Below are positions 21,944-59,284 of a stretch of DNA of 64,000 nt, piece by piece. Under the pieces are notes generated by a model that saw only the letters and a program-made list of their open reading frames with translations, was not told where the DNA came from and ran no database searches. Each line of letters opens with the position of its first letter. Position 1 is the stretch's first letter. The position numbers and the translations under genes were made by a program. The stretch is taken from assembly GCF_041886205.1 (NCBI RefSeq), contig NZ_CP169029.1; one strand, written 5' to 3'. This DNA comes from Escherichia coli. GTDB taxonomy: Bacteria > Pseudomonadota > Gammaproteobacteria > Enterobacterales > Enterobacteriaceae.

Positions 21944-22278
21944 ATCCTGATCTCCACGCCCTGTGTTGCCAGGTACGCTTTTAATTCACCAATATTGATT
22001 ATTTGTTTGTGGAATACGGAAGCTGCCAGCGCGCCGTCAACGTCGGCATCACGGAAGGCTTCGAGGAAGTGTTCCATGGTGCCCGCGCCACCGGAGGCAA
22101 TTAGCGGGACGTGGCAAACTTCACGCACTTTTTTCAGTTGTTCGAGGTCGTAACCGTTACGCACGCCGTCCTGATTCATCATGTTGAGGACGATTTCTCC
22201 GGCACCGCGTTTTTGCACTTCCTGTACCCAGTCGAGCGTTTCCCACTGAGTGACGCGGGTGCGGCTTTCATCGCCCAC
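21937..22278 (-). pseudogene. hisF: hisF, 3' portion only (C-terminal about 113 codons); 5' part replaced by foreign DNA
   Basis: Translation matches the HisF C-terminus ([38 protein letters not shown] ... [17 protein letters not shown]); an in-frame stop lies just upstream of the homology and no HisF N-terminal sequence is present. Confidence 0.85.
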
Positions 22279-22279
22279 A

Positions 22280-27475
<5,196 letters not shown>

Positions 27476-36018: not shown

Positions 36019-37191
36019 TTGCTGTTGAAACGCCGTCTTATTATTGCTGCTTCTTTGTTCGTTTTTAATTTATCGTCTGGTTTTGCGGCGGAAAACATTC
36101 CTTTTTCACCTCAGCCTCCAGAGATTCATGCCGGGTCCTGGGTATTGATGGATTACACCACCGGTCAGATTCTCACCGCGGGTAATGAGCATCAACAGCG
36201 CAATCCCGCCAGCCTGACAAAGCTGATGACGGGCTATGTCGTGGATCGCGCTATCGATAGTCATCGCATTACGCCAGACGATATTGTCACCGTGGGGCGT
36301 GATGCGTGGGCGAAAGATAATCCGGTGTTTGTCGGTTCTTCACTGATGTTTTTGAAAGAGGGCGATCGCGTATCGGTACGTGATTTAAGCCGAGGTTTAA
36401 TTGTGGATTCCGGAAATGACGCGTGTGTTGCTCTGGCTGACTATATTGCCGGTGGGCAACGGCAGTTTGTTGAAATGATGAACAACTATGCCGAGAAGCT
36501 GCATCTCAAGGATACGCATTTTGAAACAGTGCATGGTCTGGATGCACCTGGCCAGCATAGCTCGGCTTATGATTTAGCTGTGCTTTCTCGCGCTATCATC
36601 CACGGCGAGCCCGAGTTTTATCATATGTACAGTGAGAAAAGTCTCACCTGGAACGGTATCACCCAGCAAAACCGTAACGGATTATTGTGGGATAAAACCA
36701 TGAATGTTGACGGCCTGAAAACGGGTCATACTTCTGGTGCCGGGTTTAATCTCATTGCTTCGGCTGTAGATGGGCAGCATCGTCTCATTGCAGTGATAAT
36801 GGGGGCTGACAGTGCAAAAGGTCGTGAGGAAGAGGCAAGAAAATTACTGCGTTGGGGGCAACAAAACTTTACTACGGTGCAAATTTTGCACCGTGGGAAA
36901 AAGGTCGGAACGGAACGCATCTGGTATGGCGATAAAGAAAATATCGACCTGGGAACGGAACAAGAGTTCTGGATGGTGCTACCGAAAGCCGAAATTCCAC
37001 ATATCAAAGCCAAATATACCCTTGATGGTAAAGAGCTCACCGCGCCAATTAGCGCCCATCAGCGGGTAGGGGAAATTGAACTTTACGACCGTGATAAACA
37101 GGTGGCGCACTGGCCGCTGGTTACCCTGGAATCTGTCGGGGAAGGCAGCATGTTTTCTCGCCTGAGTGATTATTTCCACCATAAGGCCTGA
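36019..37191 (+). CDS. dacD: D-alanyl-D-alanine carboxypeptidase DacD (PBP6b)
   Basis: About 390 aa; signal peptide, SxxK motif (ASLTKLMT), SGN and KTG motifs of class-C PBPs; exact start codon uncertain. Confidence 0.9.
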   Translation: MLLKRRLIIAASLFVFNLSSGFAAENIPFSPQPPEIHAGSWVLMDYTTGQILTAGNEHQQRNPASLTKLMTGYVVDRAIDSHRITPDDIVTVGRDAWAKDNPVFVGSSLMFLKEGDRVSVRDLSRGLIVDSGNDACVALADYIAGGQRQFVEMMNNYAEKLHLKDTHFETVHGLDAPGQHSSAYDLAVLSRAIIHGEPEFYHMYSEKSLTWNGITQQNRNGLLWDKTMNVDGLKTGHTSGAGFNLIASAVDGQHRLIAVIMGADSAKGREEEARKLLRWGQQNFTTVQILHRGKKVGTERIWYGDKENIDLGTEQEFWMVLPKAEIPHIKAKYTLDGKELTAPISAHQRVGEIELYDRDKQVAHWPLVTLESVGEGSMFSRLSDYFHHKA

Positions 37192-37308
37192 CCTTTCTTT
37201 GCAGCAGACTGGCAGGAGTGCGAGTCTGCTCGCATAATCAACACTCATTCCTTGTGGTTTTAATATTGCAACTATACTGTATATAAAAACAGTATTAATG
37301 GAGGCGTC

Positions 37309-37782
37309 ATGAACTACGAGATTAAGCAGGAAGATAAACGTACCGTTGCAGGTTTCCATCTCGTTGGCCCGTGGGAGCAGACGGTAAAGAAAGGTTTTGA
37401 GCAGTTGATGATGTGGGTAGATAACAAAAATATTGTGCCGAAGGAGTGGGTTGCTGTCTATTACGACAATCCAGATGAAACACCCGCCGAAAAATTACGC
37501 TGCGACACCGTCGTGACGGTACCGAATAACTTTACGCTCCCCGAAAACAGTGAGGGCGTCATTCTGACAGAAATTTCAGGTGGTCAGTATGCGGTTGCGG
37601 TGGCTCGTGTAGTCGGTGATGATTTTGCTAAACCCTGGTATCAGTTCTTTAATAGCCTCTTGCAGGACAGTGCTTATGAAATGTTACCAAAGCCCTGCTT
37701 CGAGGTTTATTTGAACAATGGCGCGGAAGATGGGTACTGGGATATCGAAATGTATGTTGCGGTGCAGCCAAAACATCACTAA
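37309..37782 (+). CDS. sbmC: DNA gyrase inhibitor SbmC (GyrI)
   Basis: 157 aa; [37 protein letters not shown]. Confidence 0.95.
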
Positions 37783-37980
37783 TTCATCTCAGGGCGGTGT
37801 GTTAACGCGATGACCACTCTTTTTTTTGAAAGCGAAAAGAGTAAGATGCGCCTTTCAATTTTTTCGCTCCTGCCGGGAAATTACACTGTTCCCGGTTTGT
37901 CCGTCGGATAATTCAGAGGCGCGCCTTCTGGCCGACAGATGAGTTATGAGCGCTTTTAATCTTCATTACGGAGTTTCTGC

Positions 37981-39039
37981 GTGCGTGCCGATAAGTCATT
38001 AAGCCCGTTTGAAATCCGGGTATACCGCCATTACCGCATTGTGCATGGTACTCGGGTCGCGCTGGCATTCCTGCTCACTTTTCTCATTATCCGCCTGTTT
38101 ACTATCCCGGAAAGTACCTGGCCGCTGGTCACCATGGTGGTGATTATGGGGCCAATCTCGTTCTGGGGGAACGTTGTCCCTCGCGCATTCGAACGTATTG
38201 GCGGTACGGTGTTGGGGTCGATTTTAGGTCTTATCGCTCTGCAACTGGAGTTAATCTCGTTACCGCTGATGTTAGTCTGGTGCGCGGCGGCTATGTTTCT
38301 TTGCGGTTGGCTGGCGCTGGGCAAGAAACCGTATCAAGGTTTATTGATTGGGGTGACGCTGGCAATTGTTGTTGGTTCCCCGACAGGTGAAATTAATACG
38401 GCGTTATGGCGAAGCGGCGATGTGATCCTCGGCTCTTTACTGGCAATGTTGTTTACCGGTATCTGGCCACAACGGGCGTTCATCCACTGGCGCATTCAAC
38501 TGGCAAAAAGTCTGACCGAGTATAATCGGGTCTATCAATCTGCATTCTCACCGAACTTACTCGAACGCCCGCGTCTGGAAAGCCATCTACAAAAACTCCT
38601 GACCGATGCCGTGAAAATGCGTGGGCTGATTGCGCCCGCCAGCAAAGAAACCCGTATTCCAAAATCGATATATGAAGGTATCCAGACCATTAATCGCAAT
38701 CTGGTTTGTATGCTGGAGTTGCAAATCAATGCATACTGGGCCACGCGCCCCAGCCATTTCGTGTTATTGAACGCGCAAAAACTTCGTGATACCCAGCATA
38801 TGATGCAGCAAATACTGCTGAGCCTTGTTCATGCGCTGTACGAAGGTAATCCGCAGCCGGTTTTTGCCAATACGGAAAAATTGAACGATGCTGTGGAAGA
38901 GCTGCGTCAGTTGCTGAATAACCACCATGACCTGAAGGTTGTGGAAACACCAATCTATGGTTATGTGTGGCTGAACATGGAAACGGCACATCAGCTTGAG
39001 TTGCTATCGAATCTGATTTGCCGGGCCTTGCGCAAATAA
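37981..39039 (+). CDS. yeeA: inner membrane protein YeeA (FUSC-like)
   Basis: 352 aa with N-terminal multi-TM region; conserved position between sbmC and yeeX. Confidence 0.85.
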   Translation: MRADKSLSPFEIRVYRHYRIVHGTRVALAFLLTFLIIRLFTIPESTWPLVTMVVIMGPISFWGNVVPRAFERIGGTVLGSILGLIALQLELISLPLMLVWCAAAMFLCGWLALGKKPYQGLLIGVTLAIVVGSPTGEINTALWRSGDVILGSLLAMLFTGIWPQRAFIHWRIQLAKSLTEYNRVYQSAFSPNLLERPRLESHLQKLLTDAVKMRGLIAPASKETRIPKSIYEGIQTINRNLVCMLELQINAYWATRPSHFVLLNAQKLRDTQHMMQQILLSLVHALYEGNPQPVFANTEKLNDAVEELRQLLNNHHDLKVVETPIYGYVWLNMETAHQLELLSNLICRALRK

Positions 39040-39210
39040 TTCCTGAACTTCAGAATCATCTTGCTGCTGCTTCGATTCAGCAAGGATAAAGGGTATGATA
39101 GTGAAAAGGGATAAAAGCATTGTCATCTGCGGCAGCTATGAGTAATGTTGGCCCTAACGAATAGCGGTTGCTTAAACGAATCCGACTCTCACATTATCAG
39201 GGGTATAAAA

Positions 39211-39540
39211 ATGGAAACTACCAAGCCTTCATTCCAGGACGTACTGGAATTTGTTCGTCTGTTCCGTCGTAAGAACAAACTGCAACGTGAAATTCAGGAC
39301 GTTGAGAAAAAGATCCGTGACAACCAGAAGCGCGTCCTGTTGCTGGACAACCTGAGCGATTACATCAAGCCAGGGATGAGCGTTGAAGCAATCCAGGGCA
39401 TCATCGCCAGCATGAAAGGTGACTATGAAGATCGCGTTGACGATTACATCATCAAAAATGCCGAGCTCTCCAAAGAACGCCGCGATATCTCCAAAAAGCT
39501 GAAAGCTATGGGCGAAATGAAAAACGGCGAAGCGAAGTAA
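39211..39540 (+). CDS. yeeX: UPF0265 family protein YeeX
   Basis: 109 aa from [41 protein letters not shown]; the ORF-track upstream extension is rejected. Confidence 0.9.
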
Positions 39541-39640
39541 TTCCCGTTTTATTCAATGAGGGTTGCCCGGCAACCCTCATTGCTCATTGATTCTTATCTG
39601 TGTATCACCGTCATCATTCTCATCTGAGAACCAATCGAAA

Positions 39641-39890
39641 TTAACAACAGCCTTCTTCTGTATGCAGCAAGGCAAAAAGTTCTGTAACTCCATTGTTATT
39701 AACTGCACTGGTTACTAACACGTTGTGCGCTCCAGCTTCCCGTAACCAACTTTTCACCAAAGATATTTGTTCCATGCTGGCTAAATCTGCTTTGGTTACT
39801 ACTCCAATGACCGGGTGATTCATGGCCCGGTAGGGCGTTTTTACCTCTAATTCCTGCTTCAGCGCTGAGATTCCTGCTTGTTGCCGGAAA
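39641..39890 (-). pseudogene. C-terminal gene fragment (possibly small GTPase-like); 5' end replaced by an IS66 remnant
   Basis: ORF 39641..39997 has a C-terminal part (VIGVVTKADLASMEQISLVKSWLREAGAHNVLVTSAVNNNGVTELFALL) that reads as a protein fragment, while its N-terminal part is encoded antisense to an IS66 transposase fragment. Confidence 0.4.
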
Positions 39891-39892
39891 AG

Positions 39893-40052
39893 CAGGCACC
39901 TGCCGTCTGAACGGTATCGATCCGGAAGCGTATCTGCGCCATATTCTGAGCATACTGCCGGAATGGCCCTCCAACCGTGTTGACGAACTCCTGCCATGGA
40001 ACGTAGTTCTCACCAATAAATAAGCGTCAATACGGTGCTCCGTTGACGCTTA
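39893..40052 (+). mobile_element. IS66-family right-end remnant (3' end of transposase gene plus terminal inverted repeat)
   Basis: Plus-strand translation GTCRLNGIDPEAYLRHILSILPEWPSNRVDELLPWNVVLTNK* matches the C-terminus of the intact IS66-family transposase at 57043..58614 ([33 protein letters not shown]); followed by caatacggtgctccgttgacgcttac, resembling that copy's terminal repeat. Confidence 0.75.
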
Positions 40053-40437
40053 CTTTAATCCGTTTTCTGAGCTTAGATTTTTCTGTTCCTACCCAGACCG
40101 TGGATTTGGAATTCATTTTTTGTCAGGTCAATGCTAATCGTTAAAACGGCCATAACGCACCTCCACTGGAAGGTTTATCAGTAATATCCTACCGTTGCTT
40201 CATGGTCGGGGCGTCCATTCCATTATTATCGGTTTTCCTTTCTGTTTATAAATGAAAACGCCAGCTGTATTCAGGCTGGCGTCAGGGGAAATGAAGCCTG
40301 TTGAGTGAGATTCACCGGTTCTGGTGCAGAAGCTGCAGATGGCGCAGGGTAAGGACATCTTCTCTTGCCTGCTTAATACAGGACAACAGTGCTGTTTCTG
40401 TGGTTAATGGTACTATACCCTGCATCACTGCATTGTC

Positions 40438-40632
40438 TTACAGCAACTGGTGAGGGCTGGCATAAGTTGCCGGTGTTTCGGTAGAGTCACGGTCATCCAC
40501 CACGCGGAGTGAATAACCTTTTTCAGCGGCCTTATTAATCAGTTCAGTGATATTAACACCATCAATGTCAACGACAATGTGCCCCATATCCAGCGCCTGT
40601 ACGTTAACGCTGTCGGCTTCCAGTGTCATCAT
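40438..40632 (-). CDS. hypothetical 64-aa protein
   Basis: ATG preceded by a strong Shine-Dalgarno (ggaggcgaaatgatg on the coding strand); compositionally typical coding sequence; function unknown to me. Confidence 0.45.
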   Translation of the reverse strand: MMTLEADSVNVQALDMGHIVVDIDGVNITELINKAAEKGYSLRVVDDRDSTETPATYASPHQLL

Positions 40633-40749
40633 TTCGCCTCCGGATACTTACCCAGGGTAATGTTATTTACCGTTCTGTAATTGTCGCGGGTCATCAGGCC
40701 GGTCGCCCTGCGAGCCCGGAGGATATCGATGCTGTTTATTAACTGAGAG

Positions 40750-41459
40750 CGGGTATGGGCGCTGCTTCGCAGACAGGCAGAACTTGATGGTATGCCTGCG
40801 ATCAATGCCAAACGTGTTTACCGGATCATGCGCCAGAATGCGCTGTTGCTTGAGCGAAAACCTGCTGTACCGCCATCGAAACGGGCACATACAGGCAGAG
40901 TGGCCGTGAAAGAAAGCAATCAGCGATGGTGCTCTGACGGGTTCGAGTTCTGCTGTGATAACGGAGAGAGACTGCGTGTCACGTTCGCGCTGGACTGCTG
41001 TGATCGTGAGGCACTGCACTGGGCGGTCACTACCGGCGGCTTCAACAGTGAAACAGTACAGGACGTCATGCTGGGAGCGGTGGAACGCCGCTTCGGCAAC
41101 GATCTTCCGTCGTCTCCAGTGGAGTGGCTGACGGATAATGGTTCATGCTACCGGGCTAATGAAACACGCCAGTTCGCCCGGATGTTGGGACTTGAACCGA
41201 AGAACACGGCGGTGCGGAGTCCGGAGAGTAACGGAATAGCAGAGAGCTTCGTGAAAACGATAAAGCGTGACTACATCAGTATCATGCCCAAACCAGACGG
41301 GTTAACGGCAGCAAAGAACCTTGCAGAGGCGTTCGAGCATTATAACGAATGGCATCCGCATAGTGCGCTGGGTTATCGCTCGCCACGGGAATATCTGCGG
41401 CAGCGGGCTTGTAATGGGTTAAGTGATAACAGATGTCTGGAAATATAGGGGCAAATCCA
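40750..41459 (+). mobile_element. insD: truncated IS2 (3' about 710 bp: C-terminal 218 codons of InsD/OrfB plus right terminal repeat)
   Basis: ORF 40792..41448 translates to the IS2 OrfB C-terminus ([53 protein letters not shown]...); upstream in-frame [14 protein letters not shown] is preceded by a stop; IS2 end ...ggggcaaatcca at about 41459. Confidence 0.9.
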
Positions 41460-41792
41460 GCCACGAATGCGGATTTGTTTACGGCCTGCCAAGGAGTTGT
41501 CTGTTATCTCTACTCCGGGGATGTCCTGCAAATTATCGGCTATGGAGGCATTGGTGGAGTTCTGCAATGTTTGTTGGTCAATAACCTGTATAGTCGCCGG
41601 GCTTTCCCAAAGGTTGCTTGCCGAACGATTCGTGGTCACGACGAGCGTCTCTTCGTTGCTGATTTTTGTTTCTGAAGAAGTTGCGGTTGCAGTAGAAACT
41701 ATCCCAGAAATGCATAATGACAGAGTGGAAAGGATATAAATTCGACAAGGTATATTATATAACATTTCATCCCTCATTAATACAAAGTACAA
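41460..41792 (-). pseudogene. yoeA: N-terminal fragment of a TonB-dependent outer-membrane receptor gene, truncated by IS2 (yoeA-like)
   Basis: ORF 41373..41792 minus begins with a signal peptide and plug-domain motifs (ETLVVTTNRSASNLWESPATIQVIDQQTLQ ... DNLQDIPGVEITDNSLAGRKQIRIRG) and then runs into the IS2 end. Confidence 0.75.
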
Positions 41793-41968
41793 ATGATTGC
41801 TGTAATGATAATTATTTTCATTTATGTTCTCATATATCTATAATTATTGTCATCTTCATAAATTGTAAATATCAAACATTTTTGACCTTAATCATGTTTT
41901 TTGATAGATATTTTACGACTGAACATATCCGTCGTTTCCTCTGACTCGTGTCAGTCGGTCTCTGGTTG

Positions 41969-42010
41969 TATCCACGGACCGCACTCTTGACATAAGAGTG
42001 CGGTCCGTGG
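41969..42010. repeat. 42-bp near-perfect palindrome (ccacggaccgcactctt gaca taagagtgcggtccgtgg)
   Basis: Read directly; 17-bp arms around a 4-nt loop, located just upstream of the yoeA-like fragment. Confidence 0.7.
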
Positions 42011-43436
42011 AAAACGGAGTTGAAAAAATGGTGTCTGAAAGAAGGTACCATCATTGTGATGACAAATACTTTGGCGTGGATAATGTAATTAATTGCTGAA
42101 ATTGACCGTATATGCGGTAAGACTCATATCAGTACCAGGTCCGGTTAATTGCTGATACTAATATAAACTTTTTACAAAAGGATGAATGCAGAAGGTTACT
42201 CTAATGGCCAGAGTGATGACAATGATGGTCAGACGTTGACCTGCAGAAACTGCATTTTAATTGGTCTATAAAGTCTGCAAGAGGAATCAGGGTCAGATCA
42301 GTGAGTCTTATCGCGGCCCGAAGCTATGACTGAAAGAAGGCTGGATACAGAATTGCAACAATTTGGCAATGTCAGAACACAGAAGCTTTGCAAGCAGGTG
42401 AAAGGTTATGTCTAGCAAAAGGAGTATATCAGAATATATCTACTGATGTACAAAACACAACAATAGCTTCATGATATATAAATACGTGATGACGAGTGGT
42501 ACTCCGCATGGTTATTTAACTTCTCAGCACCACTAATGATCCTGAGCAACTTCGTATTTGGGCCATTACCATGGAGTAGAAAGCTGTGTCTGAGAATGCA
42601 GAATTTGAGAAAAGAATTCGCTTTCTTGGAGAGCTTCTGAAAATGGCACGCTAACAACGTTTTGTTAAAAAATGTGAATCACTTGCCGGGGCTGCATTTT
42701 CTATTCGAGGAGAATGTTGACGTAGATATTACAGAAATCTCAGCGCATCAGGATAAACTGCTACCTTAGGTCAACCACCAAAAGAAAATACAATACGTCC
42801 AGTTTGTATGCCTTTAATAACACATCTTCTAAATGTTGAAGAATTATCCCGCCTGCTGAAGAACGTTGCTCTGAGTGTGATAAACCTTTTTATTCTTGAT
42901 GATGTCAGCGAGAAGATGGAATATATCCCCGACTGGGTCGTGGTTACCCGGTTAAACATCTGGTGGCGCTAATAAATCTGGCAAGTCACATTCTGTTGAA
43001 TGCTGTGACAGTGCCTTACCGAGAGAGCGAAATTGTGGTGTTCTAGTGCATAGTCGCCACCATTCCGGATAATTCTATTACGTTGTTTTACAAGTTCTTT
43101 TACAGCGCAGATCTGTCGCTGACGTTGAATCAATAGCCTGGATTTCAGAACACAATGCCCGTTTGCTGGTTGTTCCGGCAGTAGCATTAATTCATTATCT
43201 GAATGAAATGTGTCAATCCACAGAAACCGCTGTCAATGACGCATTTTGTCGGACGTTAACACGAGAAAGTCTGGCTATTCCGTAATGCCATCTTATTTCG
43301 TAATGGATTGAGAATGCTGGATTTTTAATTATATTACGCGCAGTATTAATCGCGTAAATGTTTTGCGGTCAGCAACGGTGGGGGATCCATTGTTCTGTTC
43401 AATGAATACCATCATACATTTGAATCAGGAGTCGGT

Positions 43437-43982
43437 ATGATGATTTTGGTGACGGGGGGCGCACGGAGCGGGAAGAGTCGCCACGCAGAGGCGCTTATTG
43501 GGGACTCTTCACAGGTTCTGTATATCGCTACCTCGCAAATCCTTGATGATGAGATGGCTGCACGGATAGAACATCATCGGCAAGGCCGCCCGGAGCACTG
43601 GCGCACAGTGGAGCGCTGGCAACATCTTGATGAATTAATTCATGCAGACATTAACCCGAATGAGGTTGTGTTGCTTGAATGCGTTACCACAATGGTGACT
43701 AATCTGTTGTTTGATTATGGCGGCGATAAAGACCCTGATGAATGGGATTATCAGGCGATGGAACAGGCGATTAATGCTGAGATTCAGTCGTTGATTGCTG
43801 CCTGCCAACGTTGCCCCGCAAAGGTTGTATTAGTGACTAACGAAGTGGGAATGGGGATTGTGCCGGAGAGTCGTCTGGCACGACATTTTCGTGATATTGC
43901 CGGGCGGGTAAATCAGCAGTTGGCCGCTGCGGCAAATGAAGTATGGCTGGTGGTTTCGGGTATTGGAGTAAAAATCAAATGA
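43437..43982 (+). CDS. cobU: adenosylcobinamide kinase / adenosylcobinamide-phosphate guanylyltransferase
   Basis: 181 aa; P-loop [18 protein letters not shown]. Confidence 0.95.
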
Positions 43983-44722
43983 GTAAATTATTTTGGGCGA
44001 TGCTCTCATTTATTACGCGTCTGCCTGTACCGCGTCGCTGGTCCCAGGGACTGGATTTCGAGCATTATTCTCGCGGTATTATTACTTTTCCTTTGATTGG
44101 ATTATTGCTTGGCGCGATTAGCGGGCTGGTCTTCATGGTGCTGCAGGCATGGTGTGGCGCACCACTGGCGGCACTGTTTAGCGTACTTGTGCTGGTGCTG
44201 ATGACCGGGGGATTCCATCTGGACGGCCTCGCTGATACCTGTGATGGCGTATTTTCTGCACGTAGCCGCGATCGCATGTTGGAAATCATGCGTGATAGCC
44301 GTTTAGGCACCCACGGCGGTCTGGCATTGATTTTTGTGGTACTGGCAAAGATTCTGGTGTTAAGCGAGTTGGCTCTGCGTGGCGAATCGATCCTTGCATC
44401 GCTGGCGGCAGCATGTGCGGTCAGCCGCGGGACTGCCGCATTATTGATGTATCGTCATCGTTATGCGCGGGAAGAAGGGCTTGGCAATGTGTTCATTGGC
44501 AAAATTGATGGGCGACAAACCTGCGTCACACTCGGCTTAGCCGCTATTTTTGCTGCCGTATTATTGCCGGGTATGCATGGTGTGGCTGCTATGGTGGTGA
44601 CGATGGTGGCGATTTTCATCCTCGGTCAGCTTCTCAAACGTACGCTGGGCGGGCAAACGGGCGATACGCTGGGAGCAGCCATAGAGCTTGGTGAACTGGT
44701 CTTCCTGCTGGCACTGCTATAA
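43979..44722 (+). CDS. cobS: adenosylcobinamide-GDP ribazoletransferase (cobalamin synthase)
   Basis: 247 aa from [18 protein letters not shown]; polytopic membrane protein; overlaps the cobU stop. Confidence 0.95.
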
Positions 44723-44733
44723 AGAGACGTGAG

Positions 44734-45813
44734 ATGCAAATACTTGCCGATTTACTGAATACGATCCCAGCCATCGATTCTACCGCTATGTCGCGTGCAC
44801 AACGGCATATTGACGGGTTACTCAAACCTGTTGGTAGCCTGGGAAAGCTGGAGGTGCTTGCCATACAACTGGCAGGAATGCCGGGGTTGAATGGCATACC
44901 GCATGTGGGCAAAAAAGCGGTACTGGTTATGTGTGCCGATCACGGCGTCTGGGAGGAAGGGGTCGCTATTTCTCCAAAAGAAGTGACAGCCATACAGGCT
45001 GAAAATATGACCCGTGGAACAACCGGCGTGTGTGTGCTGGCAGAACAAGCGGGCGCTAACGTCCACGTAATTGATGTTGGTATTGATACTGCTGAGCCTA
45101 TCCCCGGGCTTATCAACATGCATGTCGCACGAGGTAGCGGCAATATTGCTTCAGCTCCGGCAATGAGTCGCCGTCAGGCTGAAAAGTTGCTTTTGGACGT
45201 CATATGTTATACGCAGGAGCTGGCAAAAAACGGTGTCACGCTGTTTGGTGTAGGTGAACTGGGGATGGCAAACACGACACCGGCAGCAGCAATAGTCAGC
45301 ACAATCACTGGCCGGAATCCTGAAGAAGTGGTTGGGATTGGCGCAAACCTGCCGACAGATAAACTGGCTAATAAAATTGATGTTGTGCGTCGGGCGATTA
45401 CGTTGAATCAACCAAATCCTCAGGATGGTGTTGATGTCCTGGCAAAAGTGGGTGGATTTGATTTGGTCGGAATAGCTGGAGTGATGTTAGGTGCTGCTTC
45501 CTGCGGTTTACCCGTGTTGCTGGATGGATTTCTTTCTTATGCTGCTGCGCTCGCAGCCTGCCAGATGTCTCCTGCGATCAAACCGTATCTCATTCCTTCT
45601 CACCTGTCGGCAGAAAAAGGCGCGCGTATAGCGCTCTCGCATTTGGGGCTGGAGCCTTATCTCAATATGGAGATGCGTTTAGGTGAGGGGAGTGGCGCAG
45701 CTCTGGCGATGCCCATCATCGAAGCTGCCTGTGCGATATACAACAACATGGGCGAACTTGCTGCCAGTAATATTGTTCTACCGGGGAATACGACTTCTGA
45801 TTTGAACAGTTAA
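44734..45813 (+). CDS. cobT: nicotinate-nucleotide--dimethylbenzimidazole phosphoribosyltransferase
   Basis: 359 aa; [40 protein letters not shown]. Confidence 0.95.
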
Positions 45814-45877
45814 AAACGAAAAGTCTGATAAAAGCTATACTTAACGGATAGCTTTCGCGGCATAGGAAAGGGACATG

Positions 45878-46810
45878 ATGCGTCGTGTAAATATTCTTTG
45901 CTCATTTGCTCTGCTTTTTGCCAGCCATACTAGCCTGGCGGTAACTTATCCATTACCTCCAGAGGGTAGCCGTTTAGTGGGGCAGTCGTTTACTGTAACT
46001 GTTCCTGATCACAATACCCAGCCGCTGGAGACTTTTGCCGCACAATACGGGCAAGGGTTAAGTAACATGCTGGAAGCGAACCCGGGCGCTGATGTTTTTT
46101 TGCCGAAGTCTGGCTCGCAACTCACCATTCCGCAGCAACTGATTTTGCCCGACACTGTTCGTAAAGGGATTGTTGTTAACGTCGCTGAGATGCGTCTTTA
46201 TTACTACCCACCAGACAGTAATACTGTGGAAGTCTTTCCTATTGGTATCGGCCAGGCTGGGCGAGAAACCCCGCGTAACTGGGTGACTACCGTTGAACGT
46301 AAACAAGAAGCTCCAACCTGGACGCCAACGCCGAACACTCGGCGCGAATATGCGAAACGAGGGGAGAGTTTGCCCGCATTTGTTCCTGCGGGCCCCGATA
46401 ATCCCATGGGGCTGTACGCGATTTATATTGGCAGGTTGTATGCCATCCATGGTACCAATGCCAATTTTGGTATTGGGCTCCGGGTAAGTCAGGGCTGTAT
46501 TCGTCTGCGCAATGACGATATCAAATATCTGTTTGATAATGTTCCTGTTGGGACGCGTGTGCAAATTATCGACCAGCCAGTAAAATACACCACTGAACCA
46601 GATGGCTCGAACTGGCTGGAAGTTCATGAGCCGTTGTCGCGCAATCGTGCAGAATATGAGTCTGACCGAAAAGTGCCATTGCCGGTAACCCCATCTTTGC
46701 GGGCGTTTATCAACGGGCAAGAAGTTGATGTAAATCGCGCAAATGCTGCGTTGCAACGTCGATCGGGAATGCCTGTGCAAATTAGTTCTGGTTCAAGACA
46801 GATGTTTTAA
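45878..46810 (+). CDS. ldtA: L,D-transpeptidase (YkuD domain) ErfK/LdtA
   Basis: About 310 aa; signal peptide and catalytic motif ([24 protein letters not shown]). Confidence 0.9.
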
Positions 46811-55945: not shown

Positions 55946-55998
55946 GTAACCGGCTCATTTAAACCGTCTGGTCTGTTTCCTCCGGCTCTACAAAAATA

Positions 55999-56676
55999 AT
56001 GTCCATCATTTTTAATGGACACTATCGTATGAAACACCGGACCTGGATCACTGAAGCTTTACGTCTTCACTTTGAAGAACATTTACCCCGGGTTGTGGCC
56101 GGGCGTCGCCTGGGTGTACCAAAATCAACAGTTTGTAGTATGTTCGTGCGCTTTCGGAGAGCTGGCCTTTCGTGGCCTTTGCCCGCAGGCATGTCGGAGC
56201 AGGAACTTGATGCCTGCCTTTACGGACAATTTTCCACGGTACCAGTCGTACGTCCTGAAAGCACCGTTATATCCGAAGCCCCCGTGGTAAAAAAACGTCC
56301 CCGGCGGCCCAACTTCCCTTATGAGTTTAAAATCGCCTTAGTGGAGCAGTCACTGCAGCCCGGAGCCTGTGTGGCGCAGATCGCCCGGGAAAACGGAATC
56401 AACGATAACCTGCTCTTCAACTGGCGCCATCAATACCGGAAAGGTGGCCTGCTGCCTTCCGGAAAAAATATGCCGGCACTGCTTCCCGTGACGTTAACGC
56501 CGGAGCCGGATAATAAAATCCCGGCCCCCGCACAGGAACCAGAGCAGATAAATACACCGTCCGACAGTCTGTGTTGTGAGCTGGTTCTGCCGGCCGGAAC
56601 TCTCAGGCTTAAAGGTAAACTGACGCCGGCGTTATTACAGACACTTATCCGCGAAATAAAAGGGAGCAGCCACTGA
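55999..56676 (+). CDS. IS66-family accessory protein (orf1, HTH-containing); true start uncertain
   Basis: First ORF of the element; stop overlaps the start of orf2 (ATGA). Confidence 0.6.
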   Translation: MSIIFNGHYRMKHRTWITEALRLHFEEHLPRVVAGRRLGVPKSTVCSMFVRFRRAGLSWPLPAGMSEQELDACLYGQFSTVPVVRPESTVISEAPVVKKRPRRPNFPYEFKIALVEQSLQPGACVAQIARENGINDNLLFNWRHQYRKGGLLPSGKNMPALLPVTLTPEPDNKIPAPAQEPEQINTPSDSLCCELVLPAGTLRLKGKLTPALLQTLIREIKGSSH

Positions 56677-57023
56677 TGATATCTCTCCCTGCAGGTTCGC
56701 GTATCTGGCTGGTTGCAGGTATCACCGATATGCGAAATGGCTTTAACGGCCTGGCATCAAAAGTTCAGAACGTCCTGAAGGATGACCCGTTCTCCGGACA
56801 CCTGTTCATCTTCCGCGGACGCCGGGGTGACCAGATAAAAGTGTTGTGGGCTGACAGTGACGGACTGTGCCTCTTCACCAAACGCCTGGAGCGGGGCCGC
56901 TTCGTCTGGCCAGTCACCCGTGACGGCAAGGTGCACCTTACTCCGGCTCAGTTATCCATGCTTCTTGAAGGTATCAACTGGAAGCACCCGAAACGAACGG
57001 AACGCGCTGGAATCCGCATATAA
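56676..57023 (+). CDS. IS66-family Orf2 (TnpB-like)
   Basis: 115 aa; MISLPAGSRIWLVAGITDMRNGFNGLA, characteristic IS66 Orf2. Confidence 0.85.
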   Translation: MISLPAGSRIWLVAGITDMRNGFNGLASKVQNVLKDDPFSGHLFIFRGRRGDQIKVLWADSDGLCLFTKRLERGRFVWPVTRDGKVHLTPAQLSMLLEGINWKHPKRTERAGIRI

Positions 57024-57042
57024 CCCGTTGTAAAGTGAGGAT

Positions 57043-58614
57043 ATGGACACCTCACTTGCTCATGAGAACGCCCGCCTGCGGGCACTGTTGCAGACGCAAC
57101 AGGACACCATCCGCCAGATGGCTGAATACAACCGCCTGCTCTCACAGCGGGTGGCGGCTTATGCTTCCGAAATCAACCGGCTGAAGGCGCTGGTTGCGAA
57201 ACTGCAACGTATGCAGTTCGGTAAAAGCTCAGAAAAACTTCGTGCAAAAACCGAACGGCAGATACAGGAAGCACAGGAGCGAATCAGCGCACTTCAGGAA
57301 GAAATGGCGGAAACGCTGGGTGAGCAATATGACCCGGTACTGCCATCCGCCCTGCGCCAGTCTTCAGCCCGTAAACCGTTACCGGCCTCACTTCCCCGTG
57401 AAACCCGGGTTATCCGGCCGGAAGAGGAATGCTGTCCTGCCTGTGGTGGTGAACTCAGTTCTCTGGGATGTGATGTGTCAGAGCAACTGGAGCTTATCAG
57501 CAGCGCCTTTAAGGTTATCGAAACACAACGTCCGAAACAGGCCTGTTGCCGGTGCGACCATATCGTGCAGGCACCAGTACCTTCAAAACCCATTGCACGC
57601 AGTTATGCCGGAGCGGGGCTTCTGGCCCATGTTGTCACCGGGAAATATGCAGACCATCTGCCGTTATACCGCCAGTCAGAAATATACCGTCGTCAGGGAG
57701 TGGAGCTGAGCCGTGCCACACTGGGGCGCTGGACAGGTGCTGTTGCTGAACTGCTGGAGCCGCTGTATGACGTCCTGCGCCAGTATGTGCTGATGCCCGG
57801 TAAAGTCCATGCTGATGATATCCCCGTCCCGGTCCAGGAGCCGGGCAGCGGTAAAACCCGGACAGCCCGGCTGTGGGTCTACGTCCGTGATGACCGTAAC
57901 GCCGGTTCACAGATGCCCCCGGCGGTCTGGTTCGCGTACAGTCCGGACCGGAAAGGTATCCATCCACAAAATCACCTGGCCGGTTACAGCGGTGTGCTTC
58001 AGGCCGATGCTTACGGTGGTTACCGGGCGTTATACGAATCCGGCAGAATAACGGAAGCCGCGTGTATGGCTCATGCCCGGAGAAAAATCCACGATGTGCA
58101 TGCAAGAGCGTCCACCTACATCACCACGGAAGCCCTGCAGCGTATCGGTGAACTGTATGCCATCGAGGCAGAGGTCCGGGGCTGTTCAGCAGAACAGCGT
58201 CTGGCGGCAAGAAAAGCCAGAGCCGCGCCACTGATGCAGTCACTGTATGACTGGATACAGCAACAGATGAAAACACTGTCGCGTCACTCAGATACGGCAA
58301 AAGCGTTCGCATACCTGCTGAAACAGTGGGATGCACTGAACGTGTACTGCAGTAATGGCTGGGTGGAAATCGACAACAACATCGCAGAGAACGCCTTACG
58401 GGGAGTGGCCGTAGGCCGGAAAAACTGGATGTTCGCGGGTTCCGACAGCGGTGGTGAACATGCGGCGGTGTTGTACTCGCTGATCGGCACATGCCGTCTG
58501 AACAATGTGGAGCCAGAAAAGTGGCTGCGTTACGTCATTGAACATATCCAGGACTGGCCGGCAAACCGGGTACGCGATCTGTTGCCCTGGAAAGTTGATC
58601 TGAGCTCTCAGTAA
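57043..58614 (+). CDS. IS66-family transposase (TnpC)
   Basis: 523 aa; N-terminal leucine zipper, CxxC...CxxC zinc-binding motif (CCPACGG ... CCRCD), conserved DDE region. Confidence 0.9.
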
Positions 58615-58643
58615 ATATCAATACGGTTCTGACGAGTCGCTTA

Positions 58644-59284
58644 CCAATATTGAAAAAACAGACTTTGTTGTCATCCATATTCCCGATCAGATTGGCGATG
58701 CTATGGCCATCTTTCCTGTTATTCGGGCGCTTGAATTGCATAAAATTAAGCATCTTTTAATTGTAACGTCGACAATTAATTTAGAAGTCTTTAATGCGCT
58801 TAAACTTGAACAGACTAAATTAACATTAGTCACAATGACTATGCAGGATCACGCAACATTAAAAGAAATAAAAGATTTAGCAAAGAACATAACACAGCAA
58901 TACGGTACGCCGGATCTTTGCATTGAGGGGATGCGTAAAAAGAACCTGAAAACGATGTTATTTATCAGTCAGTTGAAAGCAAAAACGAATTTTCAGGTTG
59001 TTGGTATAACCATGAATTGCTTCTCCCCTTTGTGCAAGAACGCGTCCCGTATGGATCAGAAACTCCGGGCTCCCGTACCTATGACATGGGCATTTATGAT
59101 GCGTGAGGCGGGTTTTCCAGCAGTCAGGCCAATATATGAATTGCCACTAAGTGAGGATGTACTCGATGAGGTGCGCGAGGAAATGCGATCGTTAGGATCT
59201 TACATTGCGTTCAATTTAGAAGGTAGCTCGCAGGAACGTACATTTTCATTATCGATTGCAGAAAATCTAATAGCAAAAATTTAA
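58644..59284 (+). pseudogene. yeeL: yeeL-like glycosyltransferase-9 pseudogene, central part (resumes after the IS66 insertion)
   Basis: In-frame continuation ...NIEKTDFVVIHIPDQIGDAMAIFPVIRALEL..., reminiscent of heptosyltransferase N-terminal domain. Confidence 0.6.

Follow-up and report, generated by a model that had tools for sequence, protein, structure and literature searches.

The window analyzed here is a 64,000-nucleotide stretch of contig NZ_CP169029.1 from an Escherichia coli genome (assembly GCF_041886205.1), and the interval under study lies between tmaR (yeeX) and cobU, where E. coli K-12 carries the cryptic prophage island CP4-44. The comparison set consisted of 5,426 complete E. 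coli genomes together with annotated references. The gap between the two flanking genes is 3,896 bp (39541-43436) in the window versus 13,267 bp in K-12. An initial annotation, made from the letters of the window, had put this gap at only about 3.4 kb, and its start coordinate left out relics lying further left, namely fragments of pduV, of an IS66-family transposase, and of a DUF957 gene, followed by yeeW and the end of cbtA. The equivalent of CP4-44 occupies approximately 3.36 kb of the window (roughly 39824-43181), compared to the 12,729 bp annotated in K-12. The left end of the island is kept as yoeD, the DUF957 fragment, yeeW, and truncated cbtA, while the right end is kept as truncated IS2, truncated yoeA, yoeH, yoeG, and yeeH. 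CP4-44 had initially been considered absent, but both island ends survive, and the interval is a remnant of CP4-44 that is reduced rather than absent.

Alignment of the window to K-12 MG1655 revealed three collinear blocks. The first (window 37000-40764, 98.8% identity) corresponds to K-12 yeeA, tmaR, yoeF, yoeD, yeeW, and the last ~136 bp of cbtA; the second (40750-43046, 99.9% identity) runs from the interior of K-12 IS2F into yoeA fragment 1, yoeH, and yoeG; and the third (43043-46000, 99.9% identity) resumes beyond IS5H and continues through cobU, cobS, and cobT. By this alignment, 8,172 bp internal to the K-12 island are gone from the window, a loss that covers IS2 nucleotides (nt) 1-621/625, yoeA fragment 2, yeeP, isrC, flu, yeeR, yeeS, yeeT, cbeA, and most of cbtA. 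Of the island genes, the window keeps yeeW and no more than 42 codons of cbtA and 102 codons of yoeA; flu, yeeP, yeeR, yeeS, yeeT, and cbeA are absent. IS5H of K-12 is also not in the window, where its 4-bp CTAG target is empty at 43043-43046. The K-12 island (cobU-tmaR, 2066020-2078748) otherwise lies at the same chromosomal site, has IS2F inserted at the same base of yoeA, and has in common with the window the yoeH/yoeG/yeeH debris, yeeW, yoeD, yoeF, and the cbiG relic beside cobU. The alignment thus upheld the initial statement that K-12 carries CP4-44 with flu at this position, and confirmed both that the window is without flu and most of the island and that the truncations are real, the organization not being that of an intact locus. 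The features initially described stand at the stated coordinates far more clearly than chance would allow. Variation at the cobU-yeeX site is already known, since CP4-44 is listed there as present in K-12 and B and as absent in W and Crooks (PMC3032704).

The two retained parts of the island meet at a junction within the 6 bp CGGGTA, common to cbtA and to IS2 nt 622-627, which lies in turn within a 13/15 match, CGGGTA[CA/TG]GGCGCTG. Set side by side, cbtA reads GAGAGCGGGTACAGGCGCTGAAT, IS2 reads ATCGTCGGGTATGGGCGCTGCTT, and the window reads GAGAGCGGGTATGGGCGCTGCTT; at the two mismatched bases the window has the IS2 version (TG). Unambiguous IS2 sequence begins at IS2 nt 626-628, and the BLAST match to IS2F covers nt 622-1331 with 99.9-100% identity. 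This match (40750-41459, 710 bp) agrees with the initial estimate of a 5'-truncated IS2 with about 710 bp of its 3' part. No copy of the exact junction turned up in the 5,426 complete E. coli genomes, the JGI metagenome contigs, or the GTDB representative genomes.

The local haplotype was 99.8-99.9% identical to those of TOK-001 and D2, versus 98.8% to K-12 on the left side, and only two single-nucleotide polymorphisms separate the window from D2 across 38116-45121. The tmaR-cobU alleles of TOK-001, D2, REL606, and BL21(DE3), with local identities to the window of 99.8-100%, all have IS2 in yoeA and the same relics. The TOK-001 allele contains yeeW, a frameshifted cbtA, cbeA, yeeT, an IS3 fragment, yoeA fragment 2, and a full IS2. 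It differs from the window in keeping the full IS2, yoeA fragment 2, yeeT, cbeA, and cbtA, and the loss measured from a TOK-001-like state is 2,268 bp. In REL606, IS2 is cut near nt 200, beside an ISL3 fragment. D2 breaks off in cbtA exactly where the window does, but its IS2 is shorter by another 203 bp (nt 628-830; window 40756-40958). The D2 junction, CGGG-TA-ACGGAG (L001 3221-3301), has TA microhomology and occurs in no other complete genome of the set. Most simply, the extra loss in D2 would be a second deletion from the same point.

The insertion of IS2 in yoeA and the adjoining AT-rich debris are common to K-12, REL606, BL21(DE3), TOK-001, and D2, and both therefore predate the deletion. 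The truncations and debris had initially been taken together as a deletion scar; the truncations are genuine, whereas the yoeA insertion and the debris are older than the event that produced the junction. Comparison with an O157:H7 genome revealed the state before IS2, in which an uninterrupted yoeA homologue of 702 codons is kept, IS2 and flu are both absent, and ISEc8 lies beside the cbiG relic.

The IS2 endpoint found in the window recurs in other genomes. At the same locus of BL21(DE3), IS2 is cut at the same base, leaving a 710-bp stump, but it is joined to a zinc-ribbon gene at IS2 T626 rather than to cbtA, and the sister genome REL606 keeps the intervening 1.34 kb. The BL21 junction is GACGGA|TATGGGCG, compared to the native sequences GACGGA|CAACC on the left and CGGG|TATGGG in IS2, and this comparison fixes the IS2 breakpoint at nt 625|626, where the two parent sequences have essentially no homology. 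A pattern search for this IS2 sequence following a non-native base yielded four more nt-626 contexts. In the Qin prophage of K-12, the order is exo'|IS2 626-1331|'intQ, with the truncated exonuclease gene ydfE on the left and truncated intQ on the right. This partial IS2 has the same extent as that of the window, likewise with no target duplication, a truncated gene on its left, and the original insertion site as its right flank, but it lies at another locus and has another left partner. A second copy spanning nt 626-1331 (L009) is followed by the sequence that also lies to the right of a full-length IS2 in D2 and many other genomes. Near cobU, nt 1-25 of the IS2 left repeat are joined to nt 626 (L014/L025), and elsewhere a patatin-like gene is joined to IS2 nt 624-626 with truncated yoeA on the right (L026). 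Further nt-626 junctions occur in contexts L010 and L029. With the window and BL21(DE3) included, this IS2 base has at least eight different left partners. The 626-boundary pattern gave no matches in GTDB representatives or in viral contigs.

We also examined a semi-unbiased sample, in which contexts were reached by way of the 218-amino acid open reading frame called in left-truncated IS2; this sample sees 250 nt of possible breakpoints. Four of its seven distinct contexts end at 624-626 (the L014/L025 type, K-12 Qin, the patatin-like gene, and one further locus), and the other three end at 593, 609, and 656. Under uniform breakpoints over 250 nt, the probability of four of seven falling within 3 nt is ~1.4e-4. 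A 5-bp target duplication was absent in the nt-626 copies checked (L009, L011, and L029), and the right flank was the resident one wherever the precursor is known, indicating one-sided leftward deletions from a fixed point and not new insertions. For the same reasons, a mobile mini-IS2 (nt 626-1331) inserting anew was rejected, at least in its simple form; a local hop with subsequent recombination may be an alternative to one-sided deletion.

Two further arrangements were encountered in this part of IS2. In one (L016 1139-2469), the truncated Qin copy is interrupted, 7 nt in from its left edge, by a full IS2 with the target duplication GCTGC corresponding to IS2 nt 633-637. In the other (L021 1115-3168), the left end of a full inverted IS2 abuts nt 609 of a truncated IS2. 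Judged from these arrangements, the sequences suggest that IS2 nt 605-640 may be generally prone to rearrangement.

The best explanation of the locus, to which we assign a probability of about 0.8, is a reduced CP4-44 allele in a cbi-pdu scar, shortened by one later deletion between cbtA and IS2 at a recurrent 625|626 endpoint. An ancestral loss of the cbi-pdu genes would have left a scar with the pduV relic on the left and the cbiG relic on the right, and it is in this scar that the island would sit. IS2 would have been inserted long ago in the receptor gene of the island, yoeA, an insertion common to the K-12, B, TOK-001, and D2 alleles. In the lineage of the window, one later deletion would then have extended from the 3' end of cbtA to IS2 nt 625, fusing truncated cbtA to IS2 nt 626-1331. 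The anatomy of the locus, the sequence of its junction, and the recurrence of the endpoint are direct observations. What makes the endpoint recur is a more tentative matter, and we propose, at somewhat less than even odds, that the internal IS2 site at nt 625|626 (CGGG|TATGGGCGCTG) may take a sequence-specific nick or break that repeatedly seeds one-sided deletions. The right-hand end of such a break would be protected and the left side lost to a variable extent, after which the ends would rejoin at any short homology; in the window, rejoining would have been guided by CGGGTA within the 13/15 match to cbtA.

Such a break might be made by the IS2 transposase at a cryptic site resembling the left end, or by a host activity such as topoisomerase or gyrase. 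IS2 transposition proceeds by asymmetric single-strand cleavage and transfer, in which the right end alone serves as donor and the left end, which begins 5'-TA, as recipient (PMC3299598). The end retained in the window, 5'-TATGGGCGCTGCTTCGCAGACA, likewise starts with 5'-TA, and it has CAGACA, as do both IS2 repeats. The deletions made by IS3-family elements in copy-out/paste-in transposition (by way of a figure-of-eight, or promoted by IEE) bear a likeness to the present case in that an IS3-family element is involved, the loss is one-sided, and the junctions have short or no homology. The known reactions act at the termini of the element, whereas the fixed point here lies 625 nt inside, and the IS2 copy was destroyed rather than kept or cleanly excised. 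No description of a site-specific process at IS2 nt 626 was found in the literature searched, including the IS2 mechanism paper (PMC3299598).

Several considerations weigh against this explanation or parts of it. The retained end is no closer to the IS2 inverted repeats than is shuffled sequence: local alignment of the left and right repeats with nt 616-675 gave scores of 12 and 14, which were equalled by 2,471 and 1,167 of 5,000 shuffles, respectively. When the whole IS2 interior was considered, site 626 was neither a significant nor the best internal match, and a cryptic inverted repeat found no support. We offer the transposase as the cause of the break, accordingly, as a hypothesis. Ascertainment bias enters through the four added nt-626 contexts, which came from a search targeted to that position. 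Among 5'-truncated IS2 copies in a small sample of plasmids, other boundaries occur (376, 583, 588, 593, 988, and 1132), and nt 626 is therefore a hot spot and not the sole breakpoint. The 13/15 homology between cbtA and IS2 could by itself explain the junction of the window with no hot spot needed. A TOK-001-like rather than a K-12-like precursor is suggested by haplotype similarity only. The window also has an abnormal stretch elsewhere, in the his operon (22276-25560).

The first of the competing explanations takes up the homology just mentioned and regards the junction as a plain microhomology-mediated deletion between cbtA and IS2, arising by replication slippage or alternative end joining, with IS2 passive and the similar endpoints in other genomes due to chance and ascertainment. 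The 6-bp exact and 13/15 extended homology is what such a process would use, the similarity of site 626 to the IS2 ends is not significant, and other truncation points do occur on plasmids. We nonetheless consider it unlikely, because BL21(DE3), which was found outside the targeted search, is cut at this very IS2 base essentially without homology, and because the concentration of semi-unbiased contexts at 624-626 (P ~1e-4) and the diversity of left partners are poorly accounted for by chance. The initial annotation had raised IS-mediated deletion; a deletion did occur and IS2 was probably involved, but not by either classical route, adjacent deletion from an IS2 terminus or recombination between two IS2 copies. 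IS2 does sit at the junction, and IS-mediated deletions are common in E. coli according to one report (PMC5009759). Both routes leave a complete IS2, whereas the copy in the window has lost its left 625 nt, left inverted repeat included, and is joined to cbtA, which is not an IS. The classical explanation is refuted because the junction lies inside an incomplete IS2, at a 6-bp microhomology, and we regard it as highly improbable.

The same very low standing is given to the possibility that the junction is an artefact of assembly or editing. In its favor are the failure to find the exact junction in any of the sequence collections searched and the degraded his-operon stretch in the same window. 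Against it, identity of the flanks to natural genomes stays at 99.9% as far as the junction itself. An artefact would not be expected to hit, with microhomology, the IS2 626 hot spot seen in nature, and the cbtA breakpoint is found again in D2, whose local haplotype is nearly identical. Least credible of all is a site never occupied by CP4-44, which had also been suggested initially. E. coli W and Crooks are reported to be without CP4-44 at cobU-yeeX (PMC3032704), but in the window island-specific sequence lies on both sides of the junction (yeeW and truncated cbtA on one side, and IS2 with truncated yoeA, yoeH, and yoeG on the other, at 98.8-99.9% identity to K-12), and the yoeA::IS2 insertion and debris are common to K-12, so that this suggestion is refuted.

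The locus itself is of little weight, being an ordinary E. coli allele that shows another stage in the decay of a well-known cryptic island. Neither the Ag43 gene nor the CbtA/CbeA toxin-antitoxin pair is present at this site in the genome of the window, and the IS2 stump left there is immobile. The cuts at the same IS2 base in independent deletions, one of which separates REL606 from BL21(DE3), point to a site-specific process. If true, this would be a built-in route that inactivates IS2 copies and causes loss of adjacent genes, and it would explain the identical partial IS2 elements in Qin, BL21(DE3), the window, and several further contexts. If the process is real, annotators could recognize nt-626 IS2 remnants and the gene loss accompanying them.

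Table 1. Features of the tmaR-cobU interval and its flanks in the window. PGAP, Prokaryotic Genome Annotation Pipeline; ORF, open reading frame.
Feature	Position	Strand	Basis
tmaR (yeeX), intact left flank	39211-39540	+	PGAP annotation of identical D2 sequence mapped to window
pduV/eutP-type relic (K-12 yoeF), C-terminal 60 codons	39641-39823	-	Pfam PduV-EutP positions 88-142/143, E 5e-13
IS66-family transposase, C-terminal 45 codons (K-12 yoeD)	39886-40023	+	Pfam DDE_Tnp_IS66_C, E 5e-16
DUF957 gene fragment	40312-40404	-	PGAP annotation in D2, TOK-001, and BL21 mapped to window
yeeW, intact 64-codon ORF (DUF5983)	40438-40632	-	Pfam DUF5983_N, E 8e-29; K-12 annotation
cbtA toxin gene, only ~last 42 codons	40629-40755	-	Pfam CbtA_toxin positions 81-112/112, E 5e-9; alignment to K-12 and TOK-001 cbtA
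Deletion junction	40750-40755	.	CGGGTA common to cbtA and IS2 nt 622-627, within the 13/15 match
IS2 nt 626-1331	40754-41459	+	BLAST to K-12 IS2F; 3' part of insD and right inverted repeat (41419-41459)
yoeA fragment 1, TonB-dependent receptor, first 102 codons	41460-41765	-	Pfam PF07715, E 1e-7; K-12 "gene fragment 1 of yoeA"
Fur-box-like site	41801-41819	.	36 bp upstream of yoeA start codon; 15/19 matches to GATAATGATAATCATTATC
19-bp perfect-stem hairpin	41971-42011	.	dG -43.7 kcal/mol, z -8.7; where K-12 annotates pseudogene yoeH
IS66-family transposase N-terminal relic, ~160 codons, decayed (K-12 yoeG and yeeH)	42508-43133	+	Stitched translation; K-12 mapping
cbiG (cobalt-precorrin-5A hydrolase) relic, N-terminal third, internally deleted	43115-43285	+	Alignment to 136-145-amino acid Escherichia forms
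cobU, intact right flank	43437-43982	+	ORF list; PGAP annotation in D2

The features of the interval are listed in Table 1. The IS2 stump keeps the 41-bp right inverted repeat and the integrase-core domain of insD/OrfB, the truncated insD reading frame (40792-41448, 218 amino acids) matching positions 84-301/301 of the NCBIfam IS2 TnpB model (E 1.8e-157) as well as Pfam rve and rve_3. It is without the left inverted repeat, promoter, insC, and frameshift site, its left neighbor being cbtA. Because the left end, promoter, and insC are gone, the remnant cannot move, and by its sequence it is predicted to be a dead, immobile fragment.

The yoeA reading frame abuts IS2 at 41459/41460, bearing out the initial observation of a receptor gene N-terminus that stops exactly at the IS2 terminus, with 102 codons in place of the ~110 then estimated. 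The fragment carries a signal peptide, a TonB box (ETLVVT), and the first half of the plug domain (Pfam Plug positions 4-52/107), and its best NCBIfam matches are the N-termini of CirA, IreA, and BtuB. After codon 102, the frame ends at the right end of IS2 without the 22-strand beta-barrel, whereas the O157 homologue runs on to 702 codons. Only two sites in the 64-kb window, both strands considered, score as high as the Fur-box-like site upstream of yoeA, and a score of 15 was reached by 10 of 2,000 local shuffles, which suggests that the ancestral yoeA receptor may have been iron-regulated. Signs of function in the interval would be limited to the intact yeeW reading frame and, possibly, a Fur-regulated promoter ahead of the dead receptor gene. 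The hairpin in the position of yoeH is kept in K-12, TOK-001, D2, and BL21, where it was detected as an inverted self-match, and it has no T-run. It matched no Rfam family, and an Rfam scan of 39000-44000 gave nothing real.

On the left side of the island, the pduV relic also matched NCBIfam TIGR02528 at positions 87-141/142. It is without a full-length P-loop GTPase domain, only model positions 88-142/143 of the Pfam family remaining. The yoeD relic is 50% identical to the C-terminus of the intact IS66-family transposase found at window 57043-58614. The DUF957 fragment gave no match in the Pfam scan.

The AT-rich debris reported initially on the right side was confirmed by a GC content of 25-45% across 41700-43400, and much of it can now be named. 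When the stitched translation of the relic preceding cbiG was compared by tblastn with annotated plasmid IS66-family transposases, identities of 44-46% were obtained over 90-93% of the length (E 1e-21 to 4e-24). The relic holds stop codons and frameshifts, no Pfam match was obtained with its open reading frames or with the stitched translation, and it does not match the intact IS66 TnpC of the window. In K-12 an IS5H insertion splits the relic, hence the two names yoeG and yeeH. The "IS4 family" label given by PGAP to 42945-43133 in several genomes is unsupported, since tblastn of the wider relic matches IS66-family transposases. The two IS66-family relics sit at opposite ends of the island. 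That they are halves of one split element was rejected, as the C-terminal piece lies upstream of the N-terminal piece on the same strand; the GC content, ~50-55% in segments overlapping the C-terminal piece versus ~40% across the N-terminal piece, also argues against a single split element.

A peptide quoted in the initial annotation as reading like a former coding region is indeed that of a dead gene, probably a decayed piece of cbiG. The 136-145-amino acid Escherichia forms of this relic match NCBIfam NF004463 at positions 1-126/351 (E 1e-21 to 3e-23), far under the 546-bit cutoff. The peptide of the window is 60-97% identical to the longer Escherichia relics, and PGAP annotates 43142-43285 as an incomplete cobalamin biosynthesis protein; alone, the peptide gave no Pfam or NCBIfam match. 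By homology, this segment is most probably a decayed cbiG fragment, a relic and not a functional member of the family. It stops 150 bp upstream of cobU and belongs to a relic set of Escherichia and Shigella. Gene order had first suggested a cbiP origin for the peptide, but the longer homologues match CbiG rather than CobQ/CbiP, and on that ground the idea was rejected. Other Escherichia lineages have a longer, open cbiG relic of 144-145 amino acids with an intact start (P0018, P0020, P0022, and P0025), one cluster of which numbers 1,277 sequences, and Shigella dysenteriae and other strains have different internal deletions. The cbiG relic is thus polymorphic and could serve as a lineage marker.

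In the Salmonella-type map, which Lawrence and Roth are said to have described in 1995-96, the order reportedly runs cobUST-cbiP...cbiA-pocR-pduF-pduA...pduX beside yeeX/yeeA. The pduV relic, on the pdu strand by tmaR, and the cbiG relic, on the cob strand by cobU, are oriented as remnants of such a region would be, although only ~60 codons of each gene are left in the window. Presumably, these two relics are what an ancestral loss of cbi and pdu would leave, and the island would therefore appear to lie in the scar of that loss. The pduV, IS66-family, and cbiG relics frame the island and would provide a sequence-level record of the cbi-pdu scar.

Outside the interval, the abnormal his segment at 22276-24650 stands in for the 5' part of hisF, hisA, hisH, and the 3' part of hisB, and has no open reading frame longer than 126 amino acids. 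It found no match in the 5,426 E. coli genomes, and in global alignment it is ~60% identical to the his segment of D2 (score 246 versus -183 +/- 14 for shuffled sequence). The HisF protein is 100% identical right up to the boundary, and the next 900 bp, in hisB, have 75-90% identity with ~100 indel columns before an abrupt return to normal. From its sequence, the stretch looks like artificial or pathological degradation and not natural divergence.

The best match to the gnd/his-yeeA flank (18000-39000) among complete E. coli genomes had 98.6% identity at 89% coverage. The island is 99.9-100% identical to that of several strains despite this divergent flank, and the O-antigen region differs from that of D2. 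An intact IS66-family element at 55946-58646, with open reading frames of 225, 115, and 523 amino acids, is absent from the otherwise collinear D2 and differs from both island relics.

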